DNA of 64,000 nucleotides, taken from assembly GCA_964478715.1 (NCBI GenBank), contig CAYZIY010000009.1, forward strand, positions 4,113 to 68,112, in the 5' to 3' direction. The position numbers were made by a program, and so were the translations under genes. This stretch comes from an uncultured Planctomycetales bacterium (GTDB lineage: Bacteria; Omnitrophota; Gorgyraeia; Zapsychrales; JBDRMG01). The notes below the pieces were generated by a model, which worked only from the letters and a program-made list of their open reading frames with translations, had not been told where the DNA came from and did not search any database. Shown here piece after piece: positions 6,909 to 22,785 of this stretch; position 1 is the first letter of the stretch; every line of letters begins with the position of its first letter.

Positions 6909-8195
6909 ATGCGATTGGTATTCGATTTCCTTTATCTTTGCGGCAGTCCGTTTTTTGTGCTGTATCTTTTGATTAATAGAAAGTGGCATCGGAAAATGCC
7001 GATGCGCTTTGGATGCTACTGCTCAGGTGATATAGAACAATTAAAGAGCAAGGATAATATCTGGATTCATGCCGTTAGCGTTGGAGAAGTGTTGGCTGTG
7101 CGCAAAATAATTCGCGCTCTTAAGGACAACTTTCCATTTCATCAGATTGTTATATCAACGGTGACTCAAACCGGATATGTGACTGCTCTCCATAAGGATC
7201 AAATCGCCGATATCGTCATTTACGCACCCTTTGATTTCAGTTGGATTGTCAACAAAGTCATCCGGATTATCAATCCCAAAATCTATATTTTGGCCGAAAC
7301 AGAATTCTGGCCTAATATGTTAATGACATTGAATCAGCAAAAAATTCCGGTTGTTTTGGTCAATGGAAGAATATCCGATCGATCCTTTGTTAATTATAAA
7401 CGCTGGAAATTTTTATTTCAGCAGTCTTTAAAGTCTATGCGCCTGTGTTGCATGCAAAGCGATTGTGATCAAGAGCGCCTTATTGAGATGGGAGTCGATA
7501 AGAGCCGAGTACAGGTTGTGGGCAATGTGAAATTTGATGATTTGCCAGTCGACGAAGGAATGGTTTATGATTATTTGCATATTCACGTGAATGAGCTCTG
7601 GTGGGTGGCGGGAAGTACGCATACTGGTGAAGAGGAAATAGTCTTTAGAACATATCAACGGCTATCAACTTTTTATCCCAAATTACATCTTATTCTTGCT
7701 CCGCGTCATGTGAGTCGAGTGAAGGAAATTTGTCAACTTATTGAACAGCAGGGATATCAGCCTGTCAGATATTCTGAATGTCAAAAGGTAAAGATTGACA
7801 GAGGTCAGATTGTTGTGATAGATGAGATCGGTCACCTCAAGCAAATCTATCGAATCGCTTGTTTTGTTTTTGTTGGAAAGAGTTTAAAAAAAGGCGGAGG
7901 TCAAAATATTATAGAGCCCGCTTTTTTCTTAAAACCGATTTTAGTTGGACCTCTGACGGATAATTTTCGCGATGTCGTTAAGCTCTTCCAGGATGCCCAG
8001 GCTATTGCCGTTGTGCATGATGAAAACGAACTTTTCCAAAGTGCACGCAAACTGCTTGATAATGCTAACTACCGGGAAGAAATGGGTAAAGCGGCCCATC
8101 AGGTTGTAATGAATAATGTGGGAGCTTCCGCAAGGAGTGCATCTCTGATCGCATCCGTTTTAACTGAGTCGACTCCCAGTAGTAAGAAATCATGA
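6909..8195 (+). CDS. waaA: 3-deoxy-D-manno-octulosonic acid (Kdo) transferase
   Basis: IWIHAVSVGEV, ISTVTQTG and FWPNML...PVVLVNGRIS are KdtA/WaaA hallmarks. Confidence 0.85.
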   Translation: MRLVFDFLYLCGSPFFVLYLLINRKWHRKMPMRFGCYCSGDIEQLKSKDNIWIHAVSVGEVLAVRKIIRALKDNFPFHQIVISTVTQTGYVTALHKDQIADIVIYAPFDFSWIVNKVIRIINPKIYILAETEFWPNMLMTLNQQKIPVVLVNGRISDRSFVNYKRWKFLFQQSLKSMRLCCMQSDCDQERLIEMGVDKSRVQVVGNVKFDDLPVDEGMVYDYLHIHVNELWWVAGSTHTGEEEIVFRTYQRLSTFYPKLHLILAPRHVSRVKEICQLIEQQGYQPVRYSECQKVKIDRGQIVVIDEIGHLKQIYRIACFVFVGKSLKKGGGQNIIEPAFFLKPILVGPLTDNFRDVVKLFQDAQAIAVVHDENELFQSARKLLDNANYREEMGKAAHQVVMNNVGASARSASLIASVLTESTPSSKKS

Positions 8196-9271
8196 GATCT
8201 TATTTTTACCGTTTAGCCACAGATCAAATTCATTCACCTTTGGCAAATATCTTGAAGGTCTTTTTATTGCTTGCTTCGTATGGTTATGCTTTAGGGGTGA
8301 GAGTACTTGTTTTTCTATATCGCAGGGGTCTATTAAAAACAAGTACTCTCGCTCAACCGGTGATTTGTGTCGGGAATATCACGCTTGGAGGTGTAGGAAA
8401 AACTCCTTTGGTTATAAAGATTTCTCAATATTTAAAAAGTAAAGGGATCTTAAATGCTGTTTTAACTCGAGGCTATATGGCCTCTCGTAAGGAAGGACTT
8501 CAAGAAGGAGAGCTTTTTAGCGACGAGGCCATTTTAATGCAACAGACGCTTAGTGACATTCCCGTTTTAGTCGGGGCTAACCGATATGCCCTGGCTCAAT
8601 CATTGATGGAACGCTCTATGGTGGATGTTTTTATTTTGGATGACGGGTATCAGCACTGGAAACTAAAAAAAAATCTCAATATTGTGGCGATTGATGCGAC
8701 TAACCCCTTTGGTAATGGTTATCTAGTTCCTCGTGGAATTTTGCGTGAACCTTTAAGCCATCTTAAGCGTGCCCATGTTTTTGTTATTACCAAAGTCGAT
8801 CTTGGTGCGGCCAACTTGGATCAGATCAAAACGACGTTAAGGGGCATTCATCCTCAGGCCCTGATTGTTGAATCCATCCATAAGCCAGGGGGGCTCGTTG
8901 ATCTTAATAATAAAGAATTTGATAAAACATTATCTTATTTAATGGATTGCCCAGTTTGCTTTTTTTGCAGTATCGGTAATGCACGGGCTTTTGAGCAAAC
9001 CCTTGAACGTCAAAAAGCCAAAATCATGGGAAAAATGGAATTTATGGATCATCATAGATACAATGAAGGGGATATAGATCGCATTATCCACACTTATCAG
9101 CAATCTGGCGCCGAGGTTTTGATAACTACAGAGAAAGATTTGGTTAAAATCGATTATTACTTAAATCGCCTCATCAAGCAGGCGCACCTGCTTTGTTTGA
9201 AAATTAAAATAGAGTTGACCAACAATGAAAGTGAATTCCTTCACCGGATCATTAGTCTATTGGATCGTTAA
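8192..9271 (+). CDS. lpxK: tetraacyldisaccharide 4'-kinase
   Basis: P-loop VICVGNITLGGVGKTP and LTRGY; overlaps the waaA stop. Confidence 0.85.
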   Translation: MRSYFYRLATDQIHSPLANILKVFLLLASYGYALGVRVLVFLYRRGLLKTSTLAQPVICVGNITLGGVGKTPLVIKISQYLKSKGILNAVLTRGYMASRKEGLQEGELFSDEAILMQQTLSDIPVLVGANRYALAQSLMERSMVDVFILDDGYQHWKLKKNLNIVAIDATNPFGNGYLVPRGILREPLSHLKRAHVFVITKVDLGAANLDQIKTTLRGIHPQALIVESIHKPGGLVDLNNKEFDKTLSYLMDCPVCFFCSIGNARAFEQTLERQKAKIMGKMEFMDHHRYNEGDIDRIIHTYQQSGAEVLITTEKDLVKIDYYLNRLIKQAHLLCLKIKIELTNNESEFLHRIISLLDR

Positions 9272-11201
9272 ATTTCTGGGTGTTTTGATCAGGGCCTTGC
9301 CGGTTTCTTTTGCCCATGCCTTAGGGAGGCGTATCGGCAATATAGGCTATTATCTGGATATCAAACACAAATCACTGGCCTATGCGAATCTAAAGATCGC
9401 TTTTGCCAAGACAAAGAAACCTAGCGAAATTAAGCGAATTGTCAAAGAGCTGTTTCGACATTTTGGAATGAATGTCGTCGACTTCTTACGATTGCCTCTG
9501 ATTCGCAAGCAAGGAGTCGAAAATTTTATCACTCTCAAAGGACGGGAACATGTCGAGCAGGGTTTGAAAAAAGGCAAGGGTGTCATTTTACTGGCCATGC
9601 ATTTCGGCAGCTGGGAAATCTCCAGTCTGATGGGTGACCTACTCGATCATCCCTATCGTGTGATCGTCAATCCTCAAAAAAGATTCAACCGTCTGGATCA
9701 GTTGTTGAATTCTTATCGCGGATGCGGGGGGTCAACCATCATTACTCGTGGTTCCGGAACTCGCGAGGTGATTGAATCTTTGCGGCGTAATGAGGTGATC
9801 GGCATGGTTGTGGATCAAGGTGGCAAACGGGGTTCGTTGATTAAGTTTTTTGGGCGGGAGGCTTCCATGTCGGTGGGGGCTATTCGCCTGGGGATGAAAA
9901 TGGGTACACCGGTCTGTTTTTCAATCATCATCAGAAAACCAGATGGAAAACATGAATTGATTATCCATCCGCCTTTGGAATTAAGAAATACAGGAGAAAC
10001 CGAAAGCGATCTGCAGTATAATTTAGAACCCGTCATGCAGATGATGGAGCATTATATTCGACTCTATCCGTATGGATATATATGGTTTTACAAGATTTGG
10101 AAATATTCCAAAGAGACGGCTGCGGTGATTATCCATGACGGCAAAACAGGGCATATTCGGCAGTCGCAGGCCGTTGCGCTTCAATTGGAAAAAGCGCTCT
10201 TAGAGAGAGGCATTCACTGCGCAACGGAAGTGATAGAAATTCATTTCAAAAACCGGCTTGCAAAATGCATTTTGGCTTTCTTGAGCTTGATTTCCAATGC
10301 GAATTTTTTGCAAGGGCGTATGCGTTATTTTAAGTGGTTTTTAAACAAAGAGTCCTTCAGAAAAATTAGTTCGATTAAAGCGGATTATGTTATTTCTTGC
10401 GGGTCTGCTGCGGCCTATGTCAATTATATTCTTTCCAGCGACTGTCGTGCCAAGGCCATATCGGTTCTAACACCCGGGATTCTTCCCATGCGGAAGTTCC
10501 GTCTGATCATTTTGCCCCAGCATGATCGTCATATGGTTCTCAAAAGAAAGGCTGATGTGTTGATCACTCGTGTGGCGATTAACTTAGTTAGTGAAGATTA
10601 TCTCAAAAGTCAAACACATTCTCTTTTAAAGAAATGTTCTCAATTGAAGACTGAAGAAAAATATATCGGTGTTTTTATCGGAGGAAAGTCCAAAAGGAAT
10701 TATTTGACGCTTGAACAAACAGCCATAACCATTGAACAGCTGAGGCAGGCTGCGACTCGATATCATGTTAAAATATTATGCACCACCTCGCGCAGGACGC
10801 CGCCTTTAATCGCTTCATTGATGGAAAAAGAGTTTCGTCATGATTCTTTGTGTGCTTTATTGATCTGTGCTAACAAAGAGAATATTCCCGAGGCCGTAGG
10901 CGGTATCCTTGGTTTGAGCGATATCGTGGTTGTTTCGGGAGATAGCATCAGCATGATATCCGAGTCTGTTTCTGCCGGAAAAAAAACGATTGTTCTTCTG
11001 CCCGAAGAAAGAAAAACGGTTTTTCCTGTTCGAAATAAACATAAAGAGTTTATCGATCGGCTCTTCTATCAAAATCATGTCTGGAAAACAGAAGAGAAGC
11101 ATCTCTTAAGCAGTATCAGTGAAATTATGGAGGGACATCTGAAAGTGAAGGGCATCCGTGATGATGAAAAGTTATTGCAAGCGATGAAAAGAGTGATATG
11201 A
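9225..11201 (+). CDS. lipid A biosynthesis acyltransferase (LpxL/HtrB family) fused to a C-terminal ELM1/DUF1022-like domain
   Basis: The N-terminal ~300 aa has LPLAT features (HFGSWE ... PYGYIWFYK). The C-terminal ~350 aa starts AVIIHDGKTGHIRQSQAVALQLE, typical of the DUF1022 (mitochondrial fission ELM1-like) family. Confidence 0.7.
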   Translation: MKVNSFTGSLVYWIVKFLGVLIRALPVSFAHALGRRIGNIGYYLDIKHKSLAYANLKIAFAKTKKPSEIKRIVKELFRHFGMNVVDFLRLPLIRKQGVENFITLKGREHVEQGLKKGKGVILLAMHFGSWEISSLMGDLLDHPYRVIVNPQKRFNRLDQLLNSYRGCGGSTIITRGSGTREVIESLRRNEVIGMVVDQGGKRGSLIKFFGREASMSVGAIRLGMKMGTPVCFSIIIRKPDGKHELIIHPPLELRNTGETESDLQYNLEPVMQMMEHYIRLYPYGYIWFYKIWKYSKETAAVIIHDGKTGHIRQSQAVALQLEKALLERGIHCATEVIEIHFKNRLAKCILAFLSLISNANFLQGRMRYFKWFLNKESFRKISSIKADYVISCGSAAAYVNYILSSDCRAKAISVLTPGILPMRKFRLIILPQHDRHMVLKRKADVLITRVAINLVSEDYLKSQTHSLLKKCSQLKTEEKYIGVFIGGKSKRNYLTLEQTAITIEQLRQAATRYHVKILCTTSRRTPPLIASLMEKEFRHDSLCALLICANKENIPEAVGGILGLSDIVVVSGDSISMISESVSAGKKTIVLLPEERKTVFPVRNKHKEFIDRLFYQNHVWKTEEKHLLSSISEIMEGHLKVKGIRDDEKLLQAMKRVI

Positions 11202-13297
11202 GAATTTTGCAGATACTACCCGAACTGAAAGTCGGCGGTGTAGAAACCGGAACGGTTGATTTAGCGAAATATTTGATTTCTCATGGCCATCAGGCAGTGG
11301 TTGTTTCAAACGGCGGGGAACTTGTCCAGGATTTAGAAAGAGTGAGGGCCAGGCATTATTCGTTGCCGGTTCACAAAAAGTCTTTTCTATACGCCTTTCG
11401 ATGTATTTCCGCACTTGAAAAAATTATCAAAAATGAGCAAATCGATATCGTCCATGCTCGCTCGCGGGTTCCGGCTTGGATTGCTTTTTTTGTTTGCCGC
11501 AAAACAGACACCGCTTTTATCACAACTTGTCACGGATATTATGCGACTCATTTTTTCTCTCGGGTAATGAGCTGGGCCAAGCTGATTATCGTTCCCAGCA
11601 TGGTCATCGGCCGGCATATGATTAATGACTTTAAAGTGCCTGGTGACAGCATTCGATGTATTGCCCGTAGCGTGGATTTGGATAAATTTAATTTTCCGCA
11701 AGACGAATATAAACCTAAAACAGAAAAGATTATCGCGATTATCGGACGCCTGACACCTCTAAAAGGACATACGTATTTCTTAAAATCTATGGCCAAAGTG
11801 ATTCGCACAGCACCTTATGTCAGAATCTGGATTGTCGGCGATGCCCATCTCAAGAAAGAGTCTTACAAGCAGGAGCTTTTGCTGTTGGTTAGGAGATTAG
11901 GGCTGACAAGTTATGTTGAGTTTCTGGGCAATCGAAAAGATATCCCTCAGCTGTTATCAAAGATTGACTGCCTGGTGTTCTCAAGCACGGTTCCTGAATC
12001 GTTCGGACGGGTGATCGTTGAAGCCCAAGCCGCTCGAGTTCCCGTTGTAGCGACTAAAGTCGGCGGGGTGGTGGAAATCATTGAACATGAGAAAACAGGT
12101 CTATTGGTTCTGCCTAAGGATACGGAGGCAATGGCCCGGGAAGTGTTAAGGGTTCTCAGGGACAAGCAACTGGCGCGTACGATTATCGAAGAAGCCAGAA
12201 AGAAACTAGAAACGCATTATACCCTGGATCAGATGGCCAGTCAAACCATTCAGGTTTACCAGGAGCTTTTGAATCATTTGAATATCTTAGTGATTAAATT
12301 GAGCTCATTGGGGGATGTGGTGCTGGTCATTCCTTCGCTGAGAGCTTTGCGCAGCAGATATCCGAAGGCGCGTATCTATTGTCTGGTGAGTAAGGAAGCC
12401 AGTCCGATTCTTGACCACTGTCCCTATATCGACGGCATGATTGTCATCGATATTAAGGATAAAGAAAAAAGCTGGTGGTCATTGTTGAAGATCGCCCGCA
12501 AGCTGCGCCGTTACCATTTTGATAAAATCATTGATTTTCAGAATAATCGCAAAAGTCATTTGCTTTCTTTTTTGAGTTTTCCCAGAGACAGTTACGGTTA
12601 TCATAACGGTAAGTGGAGTTGGCTTCTTTCCAGGCATATCCCTAATGACAAACCGCATTTGCCTCCTGTTTCTCACCAATTTCAAATATTAAAATTATTG
12701 GGAATTCAAGACGATACGAACGAGTCTCTGGAGCTGTGGCCTTCAAAGGGCGATGAGCGCAAAGCCCAGCAACTGCTTGATTCTGAGTGGTTGGGCAACA
12801 ATAAAAATATCATCGGAATCAATTTAGCAGCTTCTCAAAAATGGGAAAGCAAGAACTGGCCGCTTAAATATATTGCTAAAATCTGTGATCTTCTTTCGGC
12901 AAAAAATTTTAGGGTGATTCTCACCGGTGTGGAAGATGATAGGGAAGTCGCCAAGGAATTGATCAAAGCGGTTAAATCCAAACCGGCTAACCTGGTCGGG
13001 AAAACGGATCTGATGGAACTGGCGGCCCTGATTAAGCGTTGCCTGGTTTATGTCACCTGCGATTCGGCGCCTTTGCATTTGGCAGTCGCCGTGAAGACCC
13101 CGGTGGTGGCTTTATTTGGTCCGACTGATCCAAAAAGACACATGCCGTACGCCAAGGAGGCCCGGATCATCCATAAAAATGTCCGTTGCGCCCCTTGTTA
13201 CAGTGCCCGCTGTCGGATTGTCAAGCATACATGCATGAAAAATATTTCTCCAGAAGAAGTTCTTACAGCTATCGAAGATCTGATCAAAGAGGCATGA
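11198..13297 (+). CDS. bifunctional glycosyltransferase: N-terminal GT4 domain fused to a C-terminal GT9 (ADP-heptose:LPS heptosyltransferase-like) domain
   Basis: Residues 1 to about 360 form a GT4 fold (MRILQILPELKVGGVETG...EHEKTGLLV). Residues from about 365 to 699 are a GT9 domain (ILVIKLSSLGDVVLVIPSL...LVGKTDLMELAALIKRC...TCDSAPLHLAVAV). Confidence 0.75.
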   Translation: MRILQILPELKVGGVETGTVDLAKYLISHGHQAVVVSNGGELVQDLERVRARHYSLPVHKKSFLYAFRCISALEKIIKNEQIDIVHARSRVPAWIAFFVCRKTDTAFITTCHGYYATHFFSRVMSWAKLIIVPSMVIGRHMINDFKVPGDSIRCIARSVDLDKFNFPQDEYKPKTEKIIAIIGRLTPLKGHTYFLKSMAKVIRTAPYVRIWIVGDAHLKKESYKQELLLLVRRLGLTSYVEFLGNRKDIPQLLSKIDCLVFSSTVPESFGRVIVEAQAARVPVVATKVGGVVEIIEHEKTGLLVLPKDTEAMAREVLRVLRDKQLARTIIEEARKKLETHYTLDQMASQTIQVYQELLNHLNILVIKLSSLGDVVLVIPSLRALRSRYPKARIYCLVSKEASPILDHCPYIDGMIVIDIKDKEKSWWSLLKIARKLRRYHFDKIIDFQNNRKSHLLSFLSFPRDSYGYHNGKWSWLLSRHIPNDKPHLPPVSHQFQILKLLGIQDDTNESLELWPSKGDERKAQQLLDSEWLGNNKNIIGINLAASQKWESKNWPLKYIAKICDLLSAKNFRVILTGVEDDREVAKELIKAVKSKPANLVGKTDLMELAALIKRCLVYVTCDSAPLHLAVAVKTPVVALFGPTDPKRHMPYAKEARIIHKNVRCAPCYSARCRIVKHTCMKNISPEEVLTAIEDLIKEA

Positions 13298-14388
13298 TGA
13301 AAATTCTTTTTTTGACAACGCATTTCAATACCGGCGGAATCACGAGCTATCTTTTAAATCTCACCAAGGGGTTGGTCCAAGACGGTCATGAGGTTATTGT
13401 CATTTCAAGCGGCGGGAATTGTGTCGATGAACTGAAGTCTCTCCAGGCGGCAGATATCACATATGATTTAAAGACCAAGTCGGAGCTGAGCCCTAAAATT
13501 TATCTGCAGCTCAATCAATTGATACGGTTGATTAAAGAGGAATCGATTGACTTGATTCATGCTCAAACTCGCATAACGCAAGTGATGGCTCACTGCGCGC
13601 ATAAGCTGTGCGGCATACCGGTTGTAACAACGTGTCATGGTTTTTTTAGGCCGCGATGGAGCCGGAGGAAATTTCACTGCTGGGGACAGAGGGTAATCGC
13701 GATCAGCGATGATGTTTTCAGTCATCTGAAAAGCGATTTTCATTTGCCCCAAGAGCAAATGGCTCTTGTGCCTCACGGAATTGATATAGACGCTTTTCCT
13801 TTGATCGACGAGCAGAGGCGGGTCAAAACGAAACGCGAAATGAATTTAAAGGGGCCGGTTGTCGGCATTATCTCCCGACTTTCAGATGTAAAAGGGATTT
13901 CCTTCCTGATTGAGGCGATGCAGGATGTGATATCAAAATTTCCTCAAGCGCAATGTCTGATCGTGGGCGAGGGCAAAGAAGAAAAACTGCTAAGAAACAA
14001 GGTCAGCGATTTGTGTCTTCAAGAGTCTATCCATTTCTATCCGATTGTCAATCAGACCCCTAAAATGTTATCCGCCTTTGATGTGTTTGTGATGCCTTCT
14101 TTGAAAGAAGGCCTTGGGCTTTCAGTTATGGAGGCCCAGGCGATGGGGTTGCCGGTTGTGGCTTCAAGGGTCGGAGGTTTAAAAACACTGATCCAGGAAG
14201 GGAAGACCGGTTTTTTGGTTTTGCCCGCAGACAAGAAGGCCTTGACTCTGGCGATTAACCATGTATTATCCCATCCTCAACAAGCGGCCGCTATGGGTTC
14301 TCAAGCCAGGATGATGATTGAAGAAAGATTTTCTCTCAAGCAAATGACAGAAAAAACACTGGCTGTTTATCAAGAGGTTGTAAGATAA
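13294..14388 (+). CDS. GT4 family glycosyltransferase
   Basis: MKILFLTTHFNTGGITSY ... EGLGLSVMEAQAMGLPVVAS...EGKTGFLV. ATG overlaps the upstream stop as ATGATGA. Confidence 0.8.
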   Translation: MMKILFLTTHFNTGGITSYLLNLTKGLVQDGHEVIVISSGGNCVDELKSLQAADITYDLKTKSELSPKIYLQLNQLIRLIKEESIDLIHAQTRITQVMAHCAHKLCGIPVVTTCHGFFRPRWSRRKFHCWGQRVIAISDDVFSHLKSDFHLPQEQMALVPHGIDIDAFPLIDEQRRVKTKREMNLKGPVVGIISRLSDVKGISFLIEAMQDVISKFPQAQCLIVGEGKEEKLLRNKVSDLCLQESIHFYPIVNQTPKMLSAFDVFVMPSLKEGLGLSVMEAQAMGLPVVASRVGGLKTLIQEGKTGFLVLPADKKALTLAINHVLSHPQQAAAMGSQARMMIEERFSLKQMTEKTLAVYQEVVR

Positions 14389-15395
14389 TGGAAAAGATTC
14401 TTATCGTTAATGTCAATTGGCTAGGAGATGTCCTTTTTTCTTCCGCTGTTTTTCAGACCATTAAGAATAAAAGATCTGATGTTTGGTTGTCCTGCCTGGC
14501 CCATCCCCGCGTGAAAGAAATTCTTGAGATGATTCCAGGGCTGGATGAAATCATTATTTATGATGAAGATCAAAAGCATGCGACTTCCTTAAGCAAGTGG
14601 AGGTTGATTAGTCATTTAAGAAATCAAAAATTTGATCGGGTTTATCTTTTGCACCGTTCTTTAACGAGAGCTCTGCTTGTATTTCTGGCCGGGATTCCTC
14701 GTCGAATCGGCTATGCCACGAAAAACAGAGGGTTTCTTTTAACAGAGGCCTTAAAGGTTACCCCAAATGCAAAGCATCGGATGGATTATTATCTGGGTGT
14801 GATCGAGAAAGATTTTCCGATGCCTGTGAAAACATGTCGGCTCAATGTTGGGCCAGAGCAAAAAGAATATACGGTGAAGTTATTACAAAATCTGAATATC
14901 AGTCCTTCAGACAAAAAAGTGTGTATTCATCCGGCAGGGAATTGGAATCTGAAACGCTGGCCCAAAGAGTATTTCATCAGATGCATTGAGGCCTTTCAGA
15001 AAAGAGGGATTAAGGTGATTTTGATTGGAACGACCAAAGATCGCGCCTTGATTGATCAAATCAAGAAACAACTCAAAGAAGAGCCCATTGATCTTCTGGG
15101 CAAGACAAGTATCAAGCAGCTGGCCGCTTTGATGCAGATTTGTGATTGCGTGATCTCCGGCGATAGTGGACCTTTGCATATCGCCAATAGCGTGGGAGTT
15201 AAAACGATTGCTCTTTATGGGCCGACAAGCGTGGGCGTGACCGGTCCCCGCGGATTGGCCTTAAGCTCTATTCTTAGGCAGAATGTAGGATGCAATGAAA
15301 AACCGTGTTATCATCTGGCCTGTCCCGATAATATTTGTATGAAATCGATATCTGTTTTGGATGTTCTCGATGCTTTTGAACAAATTAAAAATTAA
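14388..15395 (+). CDS. GT9 family glycosyltransferase (heptosyltransferase-like)
   Basis: ILIVNVNWLGDVLFSSAV...GKTSIKQLAALMQICDCVISGDSGPLHIA. Confidence 0.8.
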   Translation: MEKILIVNVNWLGDVLFSSAVFQTIKNKRSDVWLSCLAHPRVKEILEMIPGLDEIIIYDEDQKHATSLSKWRLISHLRNQKFDRVYLLHRSLTRALLVFLAGIPRRIGYATKNRGFLLTEALKVTPNAKHRMDYYLGVIEKDFPMPVKTCRLNVGPEQKEYTVKLLQNLNISPSDKKVCIHPAGNWNLKRWPKEYFIRCIEAFQKRGIKVILIGTTKDRALIDQIKKQLKEEPIDLLGKTSIKQLAALMQICDCVISGDSGPLHIANSVGVKTIALYGPTSVGVTGPRGLALSSILRQNVGCNEKPCYHLACPDNICMKSISVLDVLDAFEQIKN

Positions 15396-16290
15396 AAAGA
15401 TCCTAGTTGTCAGCTTGAGCAATCTTGGTGATGTGATCCTTACCTTTCCGGTGATTGATATATTAATTAGCGATTTTCCGCACGCCGAGATTTCTGTAGT
15501 TGTCGGCCCCAAAGCCCGATTTTTGTTCGATCATAATGACCATATTAAATCCATTTTTATTTTCGATAAAAAATTAAAATTGTTACAGAAATATAAATGG
15601 GTGCGAGAATTACGCAAAGGACATTTTGATCTGTGCGTGGATTTACGCCAAACAGCTATCCCTCTGTTTTTATGGCCCTGTTATCATTCGTCTATACGAG
15701 CGCGCAAATATGAAGGTCTTCATATGAAAGAAAAACATCTTCAGAAATTACGGGAAATTTATGATTTTAAAGAAAAAGCAAGGGCACCACTGGCTCTTAA
15801 AGTTAGCGATCAAGACAAGGCCTGGGCCAGAGAGACTCTTAAACAGGATTCCGGTTATGCTGTTTTGGGCTGCGGCGCAGCCGATCATAAAAAAAGATGG
15901 AACAAGCAGGGTTTTGCCCGGCTGGCCGATGAGATCATCGAACGTTTTGATATGAGCGTTATCTTTGTTGGAGATGCCTCCGATCAGGAATATGGCCAGG
16001 AAATTCAATCGATCATGAAACACAAAGCTCAAAATTTATGCGGGCAAACCAATTTGACTCAGCTTAGCGCTGTCATTGGATGTGCTTCATTTGTGGTGGC
16101 CAATGACAGCGCCATTGTTCATATGGCCAGCTATTTAAACAGGCCGACATATGCCATCTTTGGTCCCAGCGATCCGTCTAAATACGGTCCCTGGAGCCGG
16201 GAAGGCCGGTTTTTTATTGGACATCCGCATGACCAGATGGCCTCGATCCATCCGGAAGAGATTCTAAAAAGCATTAAGCTGCAGGGATAA
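15361..16290 (+). CDS. GT9 family glycosyltransferase (heptosyltransferase-like)
   Basis: KILVVSLSNLGDVILTFPV...GQTNLTQLSAVIGCASFVVANDSAIVHMA. Confidence 0.75.
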   Translation: MFSMLLNKLKIKKILVVSLSNLGDVILTFPVIDILISDFPHAEISVVVGPKARFLFDHNDHIKSIFIFDKKLKLLQKYKWVRELRKGHFDLCVDLRQTAIPLFLWPCYHSSIRARKYEGLHMKEKHLQKLREIYDFKEKARAPLALKVSDQDKAWARETLKQDSGYAVLGCGAADHKKRWNKQGFARLADEIIERFDMSVIFVGDASDQEYGQEIQSIMKHKAQNLCGQTNLTQLSAVIGCASFVVANDSAIVHMASYLNRPTYAIFGPSDPSKYGPWSREGRFFIGHPHDQMASIHPEEILKSIKLQG

Positions 16291-16297
16291 GCATACA

Positions 16298-17335
16298 ATG
16301 AAGCCGGATTTCAAAAGAATTCTTGTTGTTCGCACGGATCGCGTGGGCGATGTGGTTTTGACTATTCCGGCTCTTACGTTGATCAGGAAAAATTATCCGA
16401 AATCCCATATCGCTGTTTTGGTGGCGCCCGCCACCAAAGATATCGTCAACGGACATCCGGATATCGATGAGGTAATCGTGTATGATAAAGATTATGAGCA
16501 TAAAGGAATTTTTGGCTTCTGGAAGATGAAAAATCTTCTGCAAAGCAAAAAATTTGATGTAACGATGGTCTATCACACGAAACAAAGAACCAATCTCTTA
16601 TGTTTTCTGGCCGGTATCCCGCGGCGCATCGGTTATCATAATCAGAAATACGGATTTCTATTAACCGATAAGATCTTCGATGATCGACCGCAGGGGATCA
16701 GGCATGAAAGCGAATATTGCTTGGAGATCCTCAAGCAACTCGGACTTTCTATCGATGATCAATGCCCCATGCCGTATATGCCTATTAAAGAACAAGCAAG
16801 GCAGTGGGTCAAGCAGTTTTATAAGACCAATAACATAGAAGAAAAGGACAGGCTGATTGCCATTCATCCGGGCGGAAGCGATTACACAAAGAGATGGCCG
16901 CGAGAGAAATTTGCTGAGCTGATCAATCAGATGGGAGAAAAGTATCCTTATCTATATGTGCTTGTCGGGTCAAAGGAAGTAGAAAAAATTGCCAGAACAA
17001 TTCAATCTTTGGCGAAAGTTCCCCTCATCAATGCGGTGGGCCAGACATCGATTGCGCAGCTTGCGGCCCTTTTAGAGAGATGTCAACTTCTTATTTCTAA
17101 TGATTCGGGACCTGTGCATGTGGCCACGGCTGTAGGGACACCTGTGATTTCAATTTTTGGTCAGCGTCGACGGGGAATCAGCGTGACCCGTTGGCATCCT
17201 TTGGGGAGTAAAGATATCGCCATAGAAAAAGAAATCGAAAAATGGGAGGATAAAACCCGGGAATCGAGCTATGCCGCCCTGCAGGCGATTGAGACCGAAG
17301 AAGTCTTAAGGGTTGTTGAAAGGATGTTGACTTAA
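16298..17335 (+). CDS. GT9 family glycosyltransferase (heptosyltransferase-like)
   Basis: ILVVRTDRVGDVVLTIPAL...GQTSIAQLAALLERCQLLISNDSGPVHVA. Confidence 0.8.
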   Translation: MKPDFKRILVVRTDRVGDVVLTIPALTLIRKNYPKSHIAVLVAPATKDIVNGHPDIDEVIVYDKDYEHKGIFGFWKMKNLLQSKKFDVTMVYHTKQRTNLLCFLAGIPRRIGYHNQKYGFLLTDKIFDDRPQGIRHESEYCLEILKQLGLSIDDQCPMPYMPIKEQARQWVKQFYKTNNIEEKDRLIAIHPGGSDYTKRWPREKFAELINQMGEKYPYLYVLVGSKEVEKIARTIQSLAKVPLINAVGQTSIAQLAALLERCQLLISNDSGPVHVATAVGTPVISIFGQRRRGISVTRWHPLGSKDIAIEKEIEKWEDKTRESSYAALQAIETEEVLRVVERMLT

Positions 17336-17380
17336 GTCAAAGTATAGATGAAAATAAAATGGTAAGAAAAAATGAAAAGT

Positions 17381-17421
17381 GGCACGGGCCTCTTGAAAAA
17401 GTTGAGACCCGTGCCCTTTTT
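17381..17421. terminator. bidirectional rho-independent terminator between the GT9 gene (+) and the histone-fold gene (-)
   Basis: Hairpin GGCACGGGCCTC / GAGACCCGTGCC with one mismatch, followed by CTTTTTG on the plus strand and preceded by an A-run (T-run on the minus strand). Confidence 0.6.
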
Positions 17422-17439: not shown

Positions 17440-17649
17440 TTATTTGCAGCAGTCAGAAATTAGAATATCATGACCTCGAACTGTTTTGCGGCCATTGGCT
17501 TCGCATCTTTTTTGGGCTTGATCGATCAGCCAGTATAGGTGGCAATTTAAGGCCTTGAGCGCATCTGTAGAAACATTAAATTTTCCGCCGCCTTTTAAAG
17601 TTTCTTTGGTTTTGGAAGCGATTAACAGCATTTCATTATGTTCAGCCAT
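17440..17649 (-). CDS. small histone-fold DNA-binding protein (DUF1931 / bacterial histone HBb-like)
   Basis: 69 aa, MAEHNEMLLIASKTKETLKGGGKFNVSTDALKALNCHLYWLIDQAQKRCEANGRKTVRGHDILISDCCK. The pattern LxxxSKxK...N.S.....L...........A.....A.GRKTV...DI resembles the short histone-fold proteins of Bdellovibrio/Leptospira and archaeal HMf (AGRKTIKAEDI). Own promoter, ribosome-binding site AAGGA and terminator. It is the only credible minus-strand gene in the window. Confidence 0.6.
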   Translation of the reverse strand: MAEHNEMLLIASKTKETLKGGGKFNVSTDALKALNCHLYWLIDQAQKRCEANGRKTVRGHDILISDCCK

Positions 17650-17692
17650 TTCACTGTTCCTTTCTTTAACTGGTTAATGTGATTTCGTTTTA

Positions 17693-17885: not shown

Positions 17886-18914
17886 ATGCATCATTATCCC
17901 CAAATCATTTCTCGATTCCGTAAAAAGAAAATACTTGTCGTTGGTGACTTGATCCTTGATCAATACATTCGGGGAAAGGTTTCACGGATTTCTCCCGAAG
18001 CGCCCGTACCGGTTGTTTTACAGGAAAACAAGCCCGAATTCTTTCCCGGGGGAGCGGCTAATGTGGCTAATAACTTGAGCTCTTTGGGAGCTCAGGTGAC
18101 ATTGGCAGGCTTTATCGGCGATGATGAAGAGGGAAAGATTCTGCTCAGATCTCTAAAATTAAAAAAGGTTTCTTCGCGTGGTATTGTAGTGGATCGAAGT
18201 ACGCCTACGTCTATGAAAACCCGCATTATCGCACAGCATCAGCAGGTGGTTCGCGTGGATCGTGAAAAGGTTAAGGACAGCGCTTCGGTGAATACGTATC
18301 CTAAGATCGAAGCTTTTTTAAGAAACAATATCCAGCGTTTTGATGCCTTGATTCTTTCCGATTACGGCAAGGGTGTCATTACACCCGTTCTAGCCCAGCA
18401 AGCTTGTGATATGGCTTTGAAACTGGGAAAAATTATTACCGTTGATCCCAAAGTTGAGCATTTCTGTTATTATAGAGGTGTTAGCGCGATTACACCCAAT
18501 CGCAATGAGGTTGAGAACGCCATTCACAATATCAAGATCACTCAGTCTAAAGGGCGGAGTTTAAAGATCAATACAGTTCGCCTGAAGAAAGATGAGCATG
18601 TCGATCAGGCCGGTATGGCTTTGTTGAAATATCTTGACCTGGGATGCCTGTTGGTCACATTGGGTGAAAACGGCATGCGTCTATTTGAGAAAGGAAAGAA
18701 GAAATCGATTTCCATAAATACGCGCGCGCAGGATGTCTATGATGTTTCTGGAGCCGGTGATACCGTTATTTCTGTTTTTACCCTGTCCTTGGCGGCTGGA
18801 GCAAGCGCGCGGGATGCGGCCGATCTTTCAAACTATGCGGCGGGCATTGTCGTTGGGAAAATGGGCGCTGTTCCGGTCACCTCCAAAGATTTACTGCAGG
18901 CGGTGAAATCATAA
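17886..18914 (+). CDS. hldA: D-glycero-beta-D-manno-heptose-7-phosphate kinase (RfaE domain I only; HldA-type, no adenylyltransferase domain)
   Basis: KILVVGDLILDQYIRGKVSRISPEAPVPVV and the C-terminal DVSGAGDTVI are PfkB/RfaE kinase motifs. Ribosome-binding site AGGAGG lies 7 nt before the ATG at 17886. Confidence 0.8.
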   Translation: MHHYPQIISRFRKKKILVVGDLILDQYIRGKVSRISPEAPVPVVLQENKPEFFPGGAANVANNLSSLGAQVTLAGFIGDDEEGKILLRSLKLKKVSSRGIVVDRSTPTSMKTRIIAQHQQVVRVDREKVKDSASVNTYPKIEAFLRNNIQRFDALILSDYGKGVITPVLAQQACDMALKLGKIITVDPKVEHFCYYRGVSAITPNRNEVENAIHNIKITQSKGRSLKINTVRLKKDEHVDQAGMALLKYLDLGCLLVTLGENGMRLFEKGKKKSISINTRAQDVYDVSGAGDTVISVFTLSLAAGASARDAADLSNYAAGIVVGKMGAVPVTSKDLLQAVKS

Positions 18915-18916
18915 AT

Positions 18917-19657
18917 ATGAAAGCCATCGGCATCATTCCGGTTAGGTATAAAGCCACGCGATTTGAAGGCAAGGTTTTAGCCGATTTAGGCGGTCAATCT
19001 GTGATCCAGCGGGTCTGGGAGAGGGCCTGTCAGGCTAAGCGCTTGGATGAAGTCCTGATCGCCTGCGATGACAAGCGGATTGAAACACACGCCAAAGATT
19101 TCGGGGCCAAAGTTGTGATGACAGATCCGCATCATGCAACCGGTTCAGATCGCGTCATTGAGGCTGCTGCCAAAACAAAAGCCGATTGCGTGGTAAATAT
19201 TCAGGGTGACGAACCGTTTATCAATCCTGAAACCATTGATATTTTAATCGAGAAATTGGTCCAAGATGAAGTAGCTGTTGCCGTAACAGCTGTCAAAAGA
19301 ATTGCGACACCGGCAGAGCTTGAAAATCCAAATATTGTCAAGGTTGTTTTCGATCATCAGGGATATGCGCTTTATTTTTCCCGGTCTCCGATACCGTTTA
19401 ATCGGGATCAACAACCTCTTGAAAGCATTGATTTTTTTCGGCATTTGGGGATTTATGCCTATCAAAAAGATTTTCTCATGCAATTTTCCCATTTACCCGA
19501 ATCGCCTTTGGAGAAAACGGAGAAACTCGAACAGCTTCGCCTATTGCAGGCCGGGTATAAAATTTTAACGGTTTGCACAGATCAGATTGCGCTCGGGATT
19601 GATACCCGGGAAGATCTCGAAGGAGCCCGAAAATTCCTCAACCAAGGAAAAGGCTGA
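18917..19657 (+). CDS. kdsB: 3-deoxy-manno-octulosonate cytidylyltransferase (CMP-Kdo synthetase)
   Basis: IGIIPVRYKATRF.GKVL and NIQGDEPFI. Confidence 0.9.
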   Translation: MKAIGIIPVRYKATRFEGKVLADLGGQSVIQRVWERACQAKRLDEVLIACDDKRIETHAKDFGAKVVMTDPHHATGSDRVIEAAAKTKADCVVNIQGDEPFINPETIDILIEKLVQDEVAVAVTAVKRIATPAELENPNIVKVVFDHQGYALYFSRSPIPFNRDQQPLESIDFFRHLGIYAYQKDFLMQFSHLPESPLEKTEKLEQLRLLQAGYKILTVCTDQIALGIDTREDLEGARKFLNQGKG

Positions 19658-20496
19658 TGCAGAAAATAATCAAGATTCGAAAAATCTCTATCGGAAACAA
19701 AAAACCTTTCACTCTTATTGCCGGTCCGTGCGTGATCGAGAATGAAAAGACGGTTTTGAAAATTGCCGGGACTCTCAAGAGAATAGCGGTCAAAGAGAGG
19801 ATACCTTTGATCTTCAAGGCGAGTTATGATAAAGCCAATCGGACATCTGTGAATTCCTTCCGTGGATTGGGTATGGAGCGGGGTCTTTCGATCTTAAAAA
19901 GAGTAAAGAATGAACTGGATCTTCCTGTTTTAAGCGATGTTCACAGCGTTAGTGAAATGGCAGCCGCCAGCGAAAACCTGGACGTTATCCAGATTCCGGC
20001 TTTTTTATGCCGTCAAACGGATCTGTTAATGGCTGCCGGAAAAACCAACAAGGTCATTAATATCAAAAAAGGCCAGTTTATGGCTCCCTGGGAGATGAGA
20101 GAGGCGGTTCGAAAAATAGAAAAAACAGGGAATGAAAAAATAATGATCACCGAGCGGGGTGTCAGTTTTGGCTACAATAATCTCGTCAGCGATTTCCGAT
20201 CATTAGAAATTATGAAGGAGTTTGGTTATCCGGTCGTTTTTGATGCGACACACAGCGTTCAGCAGCCCGGAGGATTAGGCACGGCCTCAGGCGGCCAGAG
20301 CGAATTCATTCCGGTTTTGGCGCGTTGCGCGATGGCTACCGGATGTGCCGCAATATTTCTAGAGACGCATCCTGATCCCCGGAAAGCCAAAAGCGACGGG
20401 CCCAATATGATGCCGTTAAAAAAACTCAAAGGGCTTCTTAAAAAGCTCAAAGCCCTGGATCATGTCGTTAAACATTTCAAGGACAGAGAAAAATGA
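19657..20496 (+). CDS. kdsA: 2-dehydro-3-deoxyphosphooctonate aldolase (Kdo-8-P synthase)
   Basis: FTLIAGPCVIENE, IPLIFKASYDKANRTS and QIPAFLCRQTDL. Confidence 0.9.
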   Translation: MQKIIKIRKISIGNKKPFTLIAGPCVIENEKTVLKIAGTLKRIAVKERIPLIFKASYDKANRTSVNSFRGLGMERGLSILKRVKNELDLPVLSDVHSVSEMAAASENLDVIQIPAFLCRQTDLLMAAGKTNKVINIKKGQFMAPWEMREAVRKIEKTGNEKIMITERGVSFGYNNLVSDFRSLEIMKEFGYPVVFDATHSVQQPGGLGTASGGQSEFIPVLARCAMATGCAAIFLETHPDPRKAKSDGPNMMPLKKLKGLLKKLKALDHVVKHFKDREK

Positions 20497-21452
20497 GTGT
20501 AAAACGAGCCAAAGAAGTGCTGACCATCGAATCCGAAGCGATTCGGGATCTCAAAAAGAGAATCAACCGCAATTTTACCCATGCTGTGGAGCTGATTTAT
20601 CGATGCAAGGGACGGGTGATTGTTACCGGCATGGGGAAAACCGGGATCATCGGCCACAAACTGGCCGCGACTTTATCTTCCACAGGAACGCCGAGCATTT
20701 GGATGCATAGCGCTGAGGCCATTCACGGAGATTTGGGTCAGGTCACCAAAACAGATGTCGTGATCTTAATAACAACAAGCGGAGAAACAGAAGAGACTCG
20801 CCGTCTTATTCCGCTGATCAAAAAAATCGGTGTGAAGATTATTGCCTTAACCGGTAATCTCCGCTCCTTTGTGGCCAGGCATAGCGATATCGTGCTGGAT
20901 ATTTCTGTGAAGAAAGAAGGCTGTCCGCTTGGATTGGCCCCGATGGCTTCCACGACAGCCACATTGGCCATGGGAGATGCCATGGCCGCCTGTCTGGTGG
21001 ACAGAAAGAAATTTCGCAAAGAAGATTTTGCCCGGTTTCATCCCGGTGGCTCCCTGGGGCGACGTTTGCTTTTGAGAGTCAGAGATATTATGCGGACTGG
21101 CCAATATTGTCCGCGTTTGTTGCCGTCAACAAAAGTTAAGACAGTTCTTTTAGCCATTACCAAAGCGCGATGTGGTTCGGCTTGTATTGTCGATCGTGAA
21201 AAAAATCTTCTAGGAATCTTTACCGATGGAGATTTGCGTCGTCATTTGGAAGTCGGCCCCCAGCTTCTCAATAGCTCGGTAAAAGAATTTATGACCCGAA
21301 AGCCCAAGACTATCGATCAGGATCGCCTGGCCGCTGAGGCCTTTGAAATTTTACAAGATAAAAAGATAGACGAGCTTCCCGTAGTCGACAAAAAGAAAAA
21401 ATGCGTAGGGCTTTTGGATGTTCAGGATATTCTCAAGGCAGGATGCGTATGA
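20493..21452 (+). CDS. kdsD: arabinose-5-phosphate isomerase (SIS domain plus tandem CBS domains)
   Basis: SIS motif GRVIVTGMGKTGIIGHKLAATLSSTGTPS plus CBS pairs. Confidence 0.85.
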   Translation: MSVKRAKEVLTIESEAIRDLKKRINRNFTHAVELIYRCKGRVIVTGMGKTGIIGHKLAATLSSTGTPSIWMHSAEAIHGDLGQVTKTDVVILITTSGETEETRRLIPLIKKIGVKIIALTGNLRSFVARHSDIVLDISVKKEGCPLGLAPMASTTATLAMGDAMAACLVDRKKFRKEDFARFHPGGSLGRRLLLRVRDIMRTGQYCPRLLPSTKVKTVLLAITKARCGSACIVDREKNLLGIFTDGDLRRHLEVGPQLLNSSVKEFMTRKPKTIDQDRLAAEAFEILQDKKIDELPVVDKKKKCVGLLDVQDILKAGCV

Positions 21453-21973
21453 AAGCGGCACTCCAAAAGAAAATCGAGAAGATAGAAGTGATCGTCTGCG
21501 ATGTCGATGGTGTTCTAACTGATGGAAAAATTATCTTTGATAGCAGTAGAAGCGAGATCAAACGGTTTGATGCCTACGATGGTTTCGCTCTCACTCTGGT
21601 CAAAGAAATGGGTTTCAAGACGGCTTTTTTAAGCGGACGCTCTTCGAGGGTGACTGCTCATCGGGCTTATAAACTGAAAATCGACAAAGTTTATCAGAAC
21701 GCGCATCCAAAAATAAAAGTGTTTAAGAGAATGCTTCGGGATTTTCATGTCCGCAGTGATCAGGTGTGTTTCATCGGTGATGATTTGATCGATCTACAGG
21801 TTCTTAAATCGGTTGGATTCTCGGTGGCTGTGGCCAATGCCGTCAAAGAAGTTAAGAAGGCTGTTGATTACGTTACCGCAAAAAAAGGCGGACAGGGAGC
21901 TGTGCGGGAGACGGTTGAGCTTATTTTAAAGACGCAGGGAAAATGGACGAAGGCTCTAAAGAGGTATAGCTAA
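21449..21973 (+). CDS. kdsC: Kdo-8-phosphate phosphatase (HAD family)
   Basis: IEVIVCDVDGVLTDGKIIFD and GDDLIDL; ATGA overlap with kdsD. Confidence 0.8.
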   Translation: MKAALQKKIEKIEVIVCDVDGVLTDGKIIFDSSRSEIKRFDAYDGFALTLVKEMGFKTAFLSGRSSRVTAHRAYKLKIDKVYQNAHPKIKVFKRMLRDFHVRSDQVCFIGDDLIDLQVLKSVGFSVAVANAVKEVKKAVDYVTAKKGGQGAVRETVELILKTQGKWTKALKRYS

Positions 21974-22785
21974 TGAAAATATTTTACTTGATTTTGATCA
22001 TGTGTTGTTTTATTGTTTCACATGCTTTCGGCGATAATCCTGCTCAGCAATTTGATGGATTTCGCTTAGAGGGCAAAGACGGTAATCGCGTATCGTGGGA
22101 TGTCTCCGGCGATCGGGCTGACATTTTGGGAAAGGAAATCAAGGTGACCAATGTTGTGGCTAACAAATACGGGGATGAAAACATGCATTTAACCGCTGAT
22201 AACGGAACATTGAATCAAGTCACCAAGGATATGTTGCTTGAAGATAATGTGGTGATCACGACCGATTCGGGTGCGACAATGGTTACCGATCGGTTGAATT
22301 GGCAACGGGAAAAAGATTTGGTTTCGACTGAAGATGAGGTTGTCATTAAAAGAGAACGAATGACTGCAATCGGCAAAGGTGCCGAGGCTCAACCGAATTT
22401 CAGTTCGGCCAAACTGCAGAAAGACGTGACTGTGACCGTAGATGTGGAAGATGAGCAAAAACAGATGCGAGAAGTTGTTATTACATGTGATGGTCCTCTG
22501 GAAATTGAATACGAAAACGAGAAGGCGGTTTTCAATGATAATGTGGTGGCGATTGACGGTGAGAGAAAACTGGTTGCCGATAAGGTGATTGTTTATTTTG
22601 ATATGGAAACCAATCAGATCAACAAGATGGTCTGCCAGGGTAATGTCGAAATTTATCAAGGTGACAACGCGAGCTATTCCCAGGAGGCTGTTTACTTGGC
22701 TAAGGATAAGAGGATTATTCTTTCCGGAAGACCCAAGCTCATTTTTTATCCGAAAGACGGTGGCGATGTATCTTTTGGAAACTAA
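21973..22785 (+). CDS. membrane-anchored LptC/LptA-family (OstA-like) LPS transport protein
   Basis: N-terminal hydrophobic anchor, then OstA-like beta-jellyroll segments: ...NVVITTDSGATMVTDRLNW... and ITCDGPLEIEYENEKAVFNDNVVAIDGERKLVADKVIVYF...CQGNVEIYQG. It occupies the position of lptC-lptA between kdsC and lptB. Confidence 0.6.
   Translation: MKIFYLILIMCCFIVSHAFGDNPAQQFDGFRLEGKDGNRVSWDVSGDRADILGKEIKVTNVVANKYGDENMHLTADNGTLNQVTKDMLLEDNVVITTDSGATMVTDRLNWQREKDLVSTEDEVVIKRERMTAIGKGAEAQPNFSSAKLQKDVTVTVDVEDEQKQMREVVITCDGPLEIEYENEKAVFNDNVVAIDGERKLVADKVIVYFDMETNQINKMVCQGNVEIYQGDNASYSQEAVYLAKDKRIILSGRPKLIFYPKDGGDVSFGN

Follow-up and report, generated by a model that had tools for sequence, protein, structure and literature searches.

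A run of five glycosyltransferase (GT) genes occupies positions 11198-17335 of a 64,000-nt stretch of DNA from an Omnitrophota metagenome-assembled genome (MAG); this whole stretch is termed the window, and coordinates are window positions unless another locus is named. All five open reading frames (ORFs) lie on the + strand and are supported by Pfam matches, namely a 699-aa GT4-GT9 fusion (written GT4a~GT9a, the tilde marking a covalent join), a stand-alone GT4 (GT4b), and three GT9 proteins (GT9b, GT9c, and GT9d); this agrees with an earlier reading made from the letters alone (the sequence-only reading), which had described a five-gene run with the fusion first and the genes overlapping or abutting. 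Domain calls were made with Pfam profiles against gathering scores and with NCBIfam models against curated cut-offs. For the conservation scan, one genome per GTDB species was taken, giving at least 588 relatives of the fusion, and the best 80 loci were used for synteny; nearly all of these are labelled Omnitrophota, and a few are labelled "uncultured Planctomycetales/Planctomycetia", "bacterium", or "Candidatus Elulimicrobium".

The fusion (11198-13297) joins an LpsB-like retaining GT-B domain, GT4a (aa 1-360; 11198-12277), which matches Glyco_transf_4 (PF13439; aa 12-163, 2.5e-28) and Glycos_transf_1 (PF00534; aa 164-335, 8.7e-40), to a heptosyltransferase-like domain, GT9a (aa 361-699; 12278-13297), which matches Glyco_transf_9 (PF01075; aa 430-674, 8.3e-43), with all three Pfam matches far over their gathering scores. 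A sequencing, assembly, or frameshift artefact is ruled out by an identical protein in NCBI (P0001), by relatives of ~700 aa, and by the occurrence of the fusion as one ORF in 79 of the 80 species-level loci, at 46-61% identity. The best 120 relatives are all ~700 aa long (coverage 98-100%, identity 58-64%), and the named ones among them belong to "Candidatus Omnitrophota/Omnitrophica" or to the candidate genera Aceula and Zapsychrus. A near-full-length match is present in all 80 loci except a few that are truncated by contig ends, and no other protein of the cluster is as well conserved as the fusion, its identity of 46-61% in these loci and 46-64% across the phylum standing against 28-54% for waaA, lpxK, and the other GTs. 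An exhaustive protein cluster search over 1.84 billion cluster representatives returned ~45 clusters with the colinear GT4a~GT9a arrangement. A relative labelled Margulisiibacteriota is 51% identical to the window fusion, which lies inside the Omnitrophota range. More distant colinear GT4~GT9 fusions, at 31-35% identity, form a deep clade that was observed in GCA_053992275.1, GCA_015494465.1, and GCA_053988655.1 (positions 10001-12103 of locus L082, 10001-12091 of L083, and 10001-12136 of L084); its genes sit directly after a Mur-ligase gene in L083 and L084 and after a radical-SAM gene in L082.

At the junction between the two halves, residues 335-380 contain zero gaps in an alignment of 27 diverse homologues, and in the AlphaFold2 model of the fusion (predicted local distance difference test score, pLDDT, 89.3; predicted template modelling score, pTM, 0.83) the C-terminal helix of GT4 (aa 343-359) leads directly into strand beta1 of GT9 (aa 362-366) without a linker. 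The closest structural relatives are single-domain proteins, Rickettsia africae 7MI0 for GT4a (an uncharacterised GT4; E 8e-54, target-normalized TM-score, TMt, 0.81) and Veillonella parvula 3TOV for GT9a (a GT9; E 4e-35, TMt 0.89; WaaF follows at 2e-23), whereas the window protein joins both kinds of domain; zero PDB chains span the two halves (query-normalized TM-score, TMq, <=0.46). No relevant description of a GT4-GT9 fusion or of Omnitrophota lipopolysaccharide (LPS) was found in the literature. The fusion is thus a real, phylum-wide conserved two-enzyme protein that combines an LpsB-like GT4 with a heptosyltransferase-like GT9, and its invariance, indel-free junction, and strong conservation suggest selection on the fused state. 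As a compact construct containing two enzymes, it would also suit structural studies of how GT-B enzymes cooperate.

Around the fusion, the genes are packed into a translationally coupled unit that starts with waaA (6909-8195, +), encoding the Kdo (3-deoxy-D-manno-oct-2-ulosonic acid) transferase of family GT30 (PF04413, 2.7e-59; NF004388, 342 bits) and syntenic in 51 of the 80 loci, counted where the flank extends to waaA. An ATGA overlap joins waaA to lpxK (8192-9271, +), the tetraacyldisaccharide 4'-kinase gene (PF02606, 3.7e-76; TIGR00682, 177.9 bits against a cut-off of 92), which is followed by a gene for a second fusion, the 658-aa LpxL~ELM1-like protein (9225-11201, +), composed of a late lipid A acyltransferase (PF03279, 6.8e-47; aa 10-293) and a GT-B domain of the ELM1/GtrOC1 family (PF06258, 1.6e-37; aa 309-623, ~nt 10149-11093), the stop of which overlaps the start of GT4a~GT9a (GATATGAGA). 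The GT4~GT9 fusion is the first of the five genes, as had been proposed, but the run of GT-B domains begins upstream of it, with the ELM1-like domain and waaA.

Downstream of the fusion, GT4b (13294-14388, +; 364 aa; PF00534, 2e-38; PF13439, 1e-27) had been called as an ORF from TTG 13186, which is too long; because its Pfam match starts ~40 residues in and ATG 13294 overlaps the TGA of the fusion (GCATGATGA), 13294 is taken as the true start. It is followed on the same strand by GT9b (14388-15395; PF01075, 1.3e-43), the most WaaF-like GT9, by GT9c (15361-16290; PF01075, 1.2e-28), a shorter GT9 (309 aa) whose N-terminal (acceptor) lobe is reduced, and by GT9d (16298-17335; PF01075, 5e-35), the last gene of the operon. 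The junctions of the GT run are, in order, ATGA, ATGA, TAATG, an overlap of 20-35 nt, and a gap of 7 nt. An intrinsic-terminator-like hairpin with a T run (17380-17421, +) marks the operon end, with a folding energy of -25.4 kcal/mol, z = -4.8, and 0 of 200 shuffles folding as well; a promoter and terminator consensus scan was no more informative than shuffles, and the terminator was shown separately by folding.

Beyond the terminator lie, also on the + strand, a stand-alone heptose-7-phosphate kinase gene (hldE kinase; 17886-18914) and kdsB, kdsA, kdsD, kdsC, lptC/lptA-like, and lptB genes (18917-23488; profile matches), so that the window order reads waaA-lpxK-lpxL~ELM1-[GT4a~GT9a]-GT4b-GT9b-GT9c-GT9d-terminator-hldE kinase-kdsBADC-lptCAB, with ATGA or TAATG start-stop overlaps. 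Across the 80 loci the order xerC-waaA-lpxK-lpxL~ELM1-GT4a~GT9a-GT4b-GT9b-GT9c-GT9d-hldE kinase-kdsBADC-lptCA recurs, with a positional orthologue for each window gene. The assignment to an LPS inner-core operon that the sequence-only reading had made is therefore upheld by the translationally coupled waaA-lpxK-lpxL genes upstream and by the heptose kinase, kds, and lpt genes downstream. The operon represents ordinary LPS biosynthesis in an uncharacterised variant form, in which the families, the pathway, and the type of cluster are already known, and it adds no new pathway or enzyme family. WaaC, WaaF, WaaQ, and WaaU (GT9) and WaaG (GT4) of E. coli and Salmonella resemble the window enzymes in their CAZy/Pfam families, GT-B fold, and catalytic residues, and their waa cluster adjoins waaA, as here; the E. 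coli core GTs are separate polypeptides, whereas the window has a fusion.

All four GT9 domains belong to family GT9, as PF01075 scores 146.9, 149.5, 100.5, and 121.4 bits for GT9a to GT9d against a cut-off of 22; in GT9c the Pfam match is limited to profile positions 57-236, and its N-terminal LGD is intact. Equivalents of WaaC D13 (in G-D) and of D261 and H266 (in D(T/S)(G/A)xxH) are invariant in the alignment of the four window domains with E. coli WaaC, WaaF, WaaQ, and WaaU. In GT9a these are G372-D373 and D622-SAPL-H627, which, together with K552-x-W554, are invariant in the 27 homologues; GT9b carries LGD, KRW, and DSGPLH, GT9c carries LGD, KRW, and DSAIVH, and GT9d carries VGD, KRW, and DSGPVH. 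Conservation of these motifs is at least 95% across the 55-78 orthologues of each group, with the exception of the KxW of GT9d (45 of 58). The intact motifs rule out a pseudo-enzyme reading, and with the WaaC-type residues kept, neither degenerate catalytic residues nor clustering with non-LPS enzymes was found. Four GT9 domains in one operon had been regarded as more than the classic set, but the number is not exceptional: E. coli K-12 also possesses four (WaaC, WaaF, WaaQ, and WaaU), besides GT4 enzymes, and six heptosyltransferases are known from A. pleuropneumoniae (PMC3559599).

None of the GT9 domains could be assigned to heptosyltransferase I, II, or III (HepI, HepII, or HepIII). The HepII model TIGR02195 is the best-scoring one for all four, with GT9a (166.8 bits), GT9b (179.2 bits), and GT9d (152.3 bits) over its cut-off of 134.6 and GT9c (107.2 bits) under it; the HepI model TIGR02193 (cut-off 185.3) gives 117.4, 89.9, 83.2, and 91.0 bits for GT9a to GT9d, and the top scores of the HepIII models TIGR02201 and NF007742, both from GT9a, are 137.6 and 134.5 bits, under their cut-offs of 170.2 and 467. 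Since three paralogues exceed an "equivalog" cut-off, TIGR02195 does not discriminate here; for the same reason, the names under which relatives of the fusion are publicly annotated, "LPS heptosyltransferase II" and "PelF", are over-specific or wrong, and the fused proteins are thus already in databases under imprecise names. In a bootstrapped, distance-based neighbour-joining tree, a phylogeny of the kind that had been proposed earlier, the four Omnitrophota GT9 orthogroups resolve as old, separate clades (bootstrap 88% for a, 90% for b, 52% for c, and 34% for d, the last value being lowered by an extra paralogue that joins b), b and d group together at 72% bootstrap, and none is assigned to WaaC, WaaF, or WaaQ. 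None of the four domains appears to be a 1:1 orthologue of E. coli WaaC, WaaF, WaaQ, or WaaU, a conclusion that is weakly tested, as these four were the only characterised references.

Whether all four domains transfer heptose is the question on which a second explanation bears. Family GT9 includes a GlcNAc (N-acetylglucosamine) transferase, Salmonella WaaK, and one or more of the window GT9 domains might likewise transfer a non-heptose sugar, so that the core would not be heptose-rich; this applies especially to GT9c and GT9d. Such a donor would be compatible with the lack of orthology to any characterised heptosyltransferase, with a GT9c that falls under all NCBIfam heptosyltransferase cut-offs, with the missing KxW in 13 of 58 GT9d orthologues, and with the single heptose-pathway gene nearby. 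Against it, the D13, K192, D261, and H266 equivalents are all kept in the four window domains, and a Lys stands at the WaaC K192 column in each of them (KNW, KRW, KRW, and KRW), a correlate of the donor rather than proof of it; E. coli WaaU, a WaaK homologue, has Cys there in the alignment. In WaaC-type enzymes the D(T/S)(G/A)xxH signature is characteristic, and K192, a residue typical of L,D-heptosyltransferases, makes contact with heptose O5/O6 (PMC3559599). The heptose kinase, moreover, is syntenic in 43 loci. It consists of RfaE domain I alone (HldA-like; TIGR02198, 351.9 bits against a cut-off of 345) without an adenylyltransferase domain, and its likely start is ATG 17886, with AGGAGG 8 nt upstream, the alternative TTG 17844 being less likely. 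ADP-heptose is a presumed donor, because the kinase is the only gene of its pathway in the window, and the K192-equivalent Lys in all four GT9 domains together with the syntenic kinase makes a heptose-rich core plausible; on balance, a non-heptose donor for one or more domains is judged improbable, although by no means negligible.

A further feature of the GT9 domains is a Cys4 motif close to the C-terminus of the C-lobe, found in GT9a at aa 664-679 (nt 13187-13234) and in GT9b at aa 302-317 (nt 15291-15338), with the spacings CxxCx4Cx6C and Cx4Cx4Cx4C. It is present in 78 of 78 GT9a, 65 of 66 GT9b, 41 of 58 GT9d, and 7 of 55 GT9c orthologues (the 66 being the loci in which the GT9b orthogroup was found); E. 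coli WaaC and WaaF, 3TOV, and the GT9d of the window all lack it. The region is modelled with a low pLDDT of 58-64, and the motif is probably a structural metal knuckle, recalling the iron finger of TibC (PMC4358343). TibC and AAH, of the bacterial autotransporter heptosyltransferases (BAHTs), are heptosyltransferases with a WaaC-related GT-B core and a Cys4 metal knuckle in the C-lobe, which is the sole feature that GT9a shares with the criteria for that group; the BAHTs glycosylate proteins, form dodecamers, and possess an N-terminal beta-barrel and a beta-hairpin thumb, whereas the GT9a model opens directly with Rossmann strand beta1.

This resemblance raises the alternative that the genes glycosylate a substrate other than LPS, such as a protein (as BAHT/TibC do), a capsule, or an exopolysaccharide (EPS). 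Besides the Cys4 motif, it could draw on the best NCBIfam GT4 matches, which are of PEP-CTERM/EPS type and far under their cut-offs or, for PelF (NF038011), 101.5 bits against a cut-off of 100, and on the distant fusion clade that lies outside LPS clusters. The evidence from context and structure runs strongly the other way, since in ~80 genomes the genes are coupled to waaA, lpxK, and lpxL and have kds and lpt genes after them, the closest structures of GT9a are WaaF and 3TOV, there is no TibC match at E <= 1e-3, no autotransporter gene in the window, and neither an N-terminal beta-barrel nor a beta-hairpin thumb, and the closest named homologue of GT4a is an enzyme of lipooligosaccharide (LOS), LpsB. 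A non-LPS substrate is accordingly regarded as highly improbable.

The GT4 half of the fusion is LpsB-like. GT4a is 34% identical to A. baumannii LpsB over its full length (E 3e-70, 212 bits), and the LpsB locus is the only site matched by GT4a at E <= 1e-10 in the A. baumannii chromosomes that the plasmid collection searched by tblastn also includes. GT4b is more distant from LpsB (27% identity, 125 bits), and against named genomes GT4b and GT9a gave generic matches of 26-30% only. GT4a matches WaaG partially, at E 3.8e-7 to 3.2e-6 over ~100-120 residues, rather than as a full-length orthologue. PF13439 and PF00534 match GT4a and GT4b alike, which places both among the retaining GT4 enzymes with a GT-B fold, and both keep their motifs: GRLTPLKG (GRxxxxKG, aa 183-190) and E267-x7-E275 in GT4a, invariant in the 27 fusion homologues, and SRLSDVKG (SRxxxxKG) and E272-x7-E280 in GT4b, positional orthologues of which (37-54% identity) occur in nearly all loci.

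In A. baumannii, LpsB and the ELM1-like protein A1S_2903 (GtrOC1 family) need each other to transfer KdoIII and GlcNAcA onto Kdo2-lipid A once late acylation has taken place, as reported in 2024, and a two-glycosyltransferase complex was proposed by the authors (PMC10936431). PF06258, the family of the ELM1-like domain, belongs to the GT-B clan (PMC10327509). The likeness to the window lies in an LpsB-like GT4a with a translationally coupled PF06258 domain immediately upstream, and in a proposed pathway in which the LpsB/ELM1 pair acts after WaaA and late acylation; it differs in that lpsB and A1S_2903 are unlinked and unfused and the Acinetobacter core is heptose-free, whereas the window joins its ELM1-like domain to LpxL and its LpsB-like domain to a GT9. 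Because GT4a resembles LpsB, whose co-dependent partner in Acinetobacter is ELM1-like, the functional partner of GT4a is likely the ELM1-like domain encoded just upstream, which the sequence-only reading had not noticed, and its acceptor region is likely the Kdo base of the core. The proposal that the fused halves catalyze two consecutive steps must be modified in this respect: the pairing of two transferases in one polypeptide stands, but GT4a is LpsB-like rather than WaaG-like, its likely partner is the ELM1-like domain, and the fused domains may decorate neighbouring positions instead.

The LpxL~ELM1 architecture is found in 72 of the 80 loci and also in Methylophaga pinxianii, where plasmid pWTT2411 (LGT42_RS15355-15375) encodes an LpxL~ELM1 fusion (LGT42_RS15355, 674 aa), an LpsB-like GT4 that is 30% identical to GT4a, another GT4, and a GT9, which reproduces the domain order of the window. 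The Methylophaga cluster differs in that its GT4 and GT9 are separate, the GT9 is single, an O-antigen ligase comes next, and the genes reside on the plasmid of a cultured gammaproteobacterium. The ELM1-like domain has no meaningful phmmer match in the PDB. As an observation in its own right, the LpxL~ELM1 fusion connects the bacterial ELM1-like proteins, which are poorly understood, with the late steps of lipid A synthesis.

Fusions between other neighbours of the operon recur among the loci (L018, L019, L020, L022, L025-L027, L029, L033, and others; L015 and L071; P0152). GT9c~GT9d forms one ORF of ~660-730 aa in 27 of the 80 loci and is separate in 25; GT4b~GT9b is fused in L015, L071, and the P0180 family and constitutes a second GT4~GT9 fusion family of ~30 clusters, the named members of which are all Omnitrophota; a putative triple GT4b~GT9b~GT9c of 1081 aa (P0152) lies on a 5.6-kb contig; and in L068 and L072 it is LpxK, rather than LpxL, that carries the ELM1 domain. 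GT4~GT4 and GT9~GT9 tandems were numerous in the cluster search. Nearly all loci have LpxL~ELM1, GT4a~GT9a, GT4b, and GT9b, but some loci lack GT9c and GT9d or have other genes in their place, a pattern that fits an invariant inner core (a and b) with a lineage-variable extension (c and d). For instance, a DUF3108 gene follows GT9b in some loci and takes the place of GT9c/d in L076, and a polysaccharide deacetylase gene (PF01522) lies between GT4b and GT9b in L076 (13364-14137) and L073 (12108-12932), an insertion that is absent from the window. The deacetylase resembles the glucosamine (GlcN) step of Acinetobacter 2900/2901, which hints, by analogy, that GT4b may handle an N-acetylated sugar in those lineages. 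The insertion also recalls the transfer of GlcNAc with subsequent deacetylation in other cores. A similar-sized ORF was observed between GT4b and GT9b in L081, L058, and L060.

The same fusions can be read in a less functional way, with GT4a~GT9a as a neutral by-product of genome compaction, comprising two independent enzymes without channelling or obligate coupling. Start/stop overlaps occur at almost all operon junctions, where a single substitution or indel would merge two genes; different neighbours are fused in different lineages, with GT9c and GT9d fused in 27 and split in 25 loci among close relatives; and GT4~GT4 and GT9~GT9 tandems are common among metagenomic proteins. GT4a~GT9a itself behaves differently from such changeable joins, being never split in 79 loci at 46-61% identity, with an indel-free junction, the highest conservation in the cluster, and a model that packs the two halves together. 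We therefore consider neutral fusion rather unlikely, and the channelling of consecutive steps that the sequence-only reading had put forward is plausible, because the junction is indel-free and without a linker, the pTM is 0.83, and fusions of GT neighbours recur in sister lineages.

Taken together, the region is read, with moderate confidence, as an Omnitrophota lipid A-core assembly operon, the domain order of which probably mirrors the pathway order and in which GT4a~GT9a would be a two-enzyme unit at the Kdo-proximal base. The evidence directly shows what the domains are, that their catalytic motifs are intact, that they sit among LPS genes, that the fusion and its synteny are conserved across the phylum, that GT4a is LpsB-like, and that fusions of neighbours recur. 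In this scheme, for which donor sugars, acceptors, step order, and any kinetic benefit of fusion are what we infer, WaaA would add Kdo to lipid IVA, and LpxK and LpxL would complete lipid A; the ELM1-like GT-B domain and the LpsB-like GT4a would then decorate the Kdo region, as their co-dependent Acinetobacter homologues do, and GT9a, rigidly fused to GT4a, would add heptose from ADP-heptose beside the GT4a site. GT4b and GT9b would extend the conserved inner core, and GT9c and GT9d would add more heptoses in the lineage-variable outer part. The fusion itself may act as a peripheral-membrane unit that holds two GT-B active sites in fixed geometry over a shared lipid-anchored acceptor.

Several observations weigh against this interpretation. 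The deep GT4~GT9 clade lies away from any waaA/lpxK (LPS) cluster, and the pTM describes a predicted, not a measured, interface. No GT9 reaches a HepI or HepIII cut-off, and the three paralogues over the HepII "equivalog" cut-off cannot all be correct HepII enzymes; in the tree with its four references, every pairing of a GT9 orthogroup with an E. coli enzyme has a bootstrap of <=11%, which gives no orthology to these enzymes. Among window ORFs of at least 150 aa, gmhA, gmhB, hldC, and hldD were not found, which leaves the kinase as the sole ADP-heptose gene there. The 34% similarity to LpsB fixes neither donor nor acceptor, and the heptose-free Acinetobacter core limits the analogy to the GT4/ELM1 part; the ELM1-like domain is too diverged to give a BLAST match to Acinetobacter (tblastn, plasmid collection with A. 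baumannii chromosomes) and matches Methylophaga weakly, at 33.5 bits. Furthermore, all Omnitrophota are uncultured MAGs or single-amplified genomes (SAGs).

The assembly of the LPS core is usually pictured as the work of independent peripheral enzymes acting in turn. The conserved linker-less GT4~GT9, the varied neighbour fusions, and the adjacent LpxL~ELM1 provide comparative-genomic support for a physical coupling of core steps, as well as independent support for the unexplained LpsB/ELM1-like partnership, which they tie to late lipid A acylation. A bolder and tentative extension, held to be doubtful, would take LpxL~ELM1, LpxK~ELM1, LpsB-like~GT9a, GT4b~GT9b(~GT9c), and GT9c~GT9d as a "Rosetta-stone" map of a membrane-associated, coupled LPS-core assembly line, with late acylation, the ELM1-like and LpsB-like transferases, and the first heptosyltransferase in one complex. 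If that were true, the co-dependence of LpsB and ELM1 would be an ancient cross-phylum feature extending to heptosylation, and the unfused core GTs of model bacteria would be suggested to work as complexes.

The remainder of the 64-kb window contains housekeeping genes. Nearly all family-matched ORFs of at least 150 aa within positions 1-64000 lie on the + strand, a bias that is unusually complete for a stretch of 64 kb, and the GC skew is positive in each 2-kb bin. The sole plausible minus-strand gene observed near the cluster is a 67-aa ORF without a Pfam match (17452-17652), situated in the 550-nt gap between the terminator and the promoter region of the hldE kinase. Further downstream, a 241-aa ORF on the + strand (27926-28651) lies between serA and purA and matches no NCBIfam or Pfam family.

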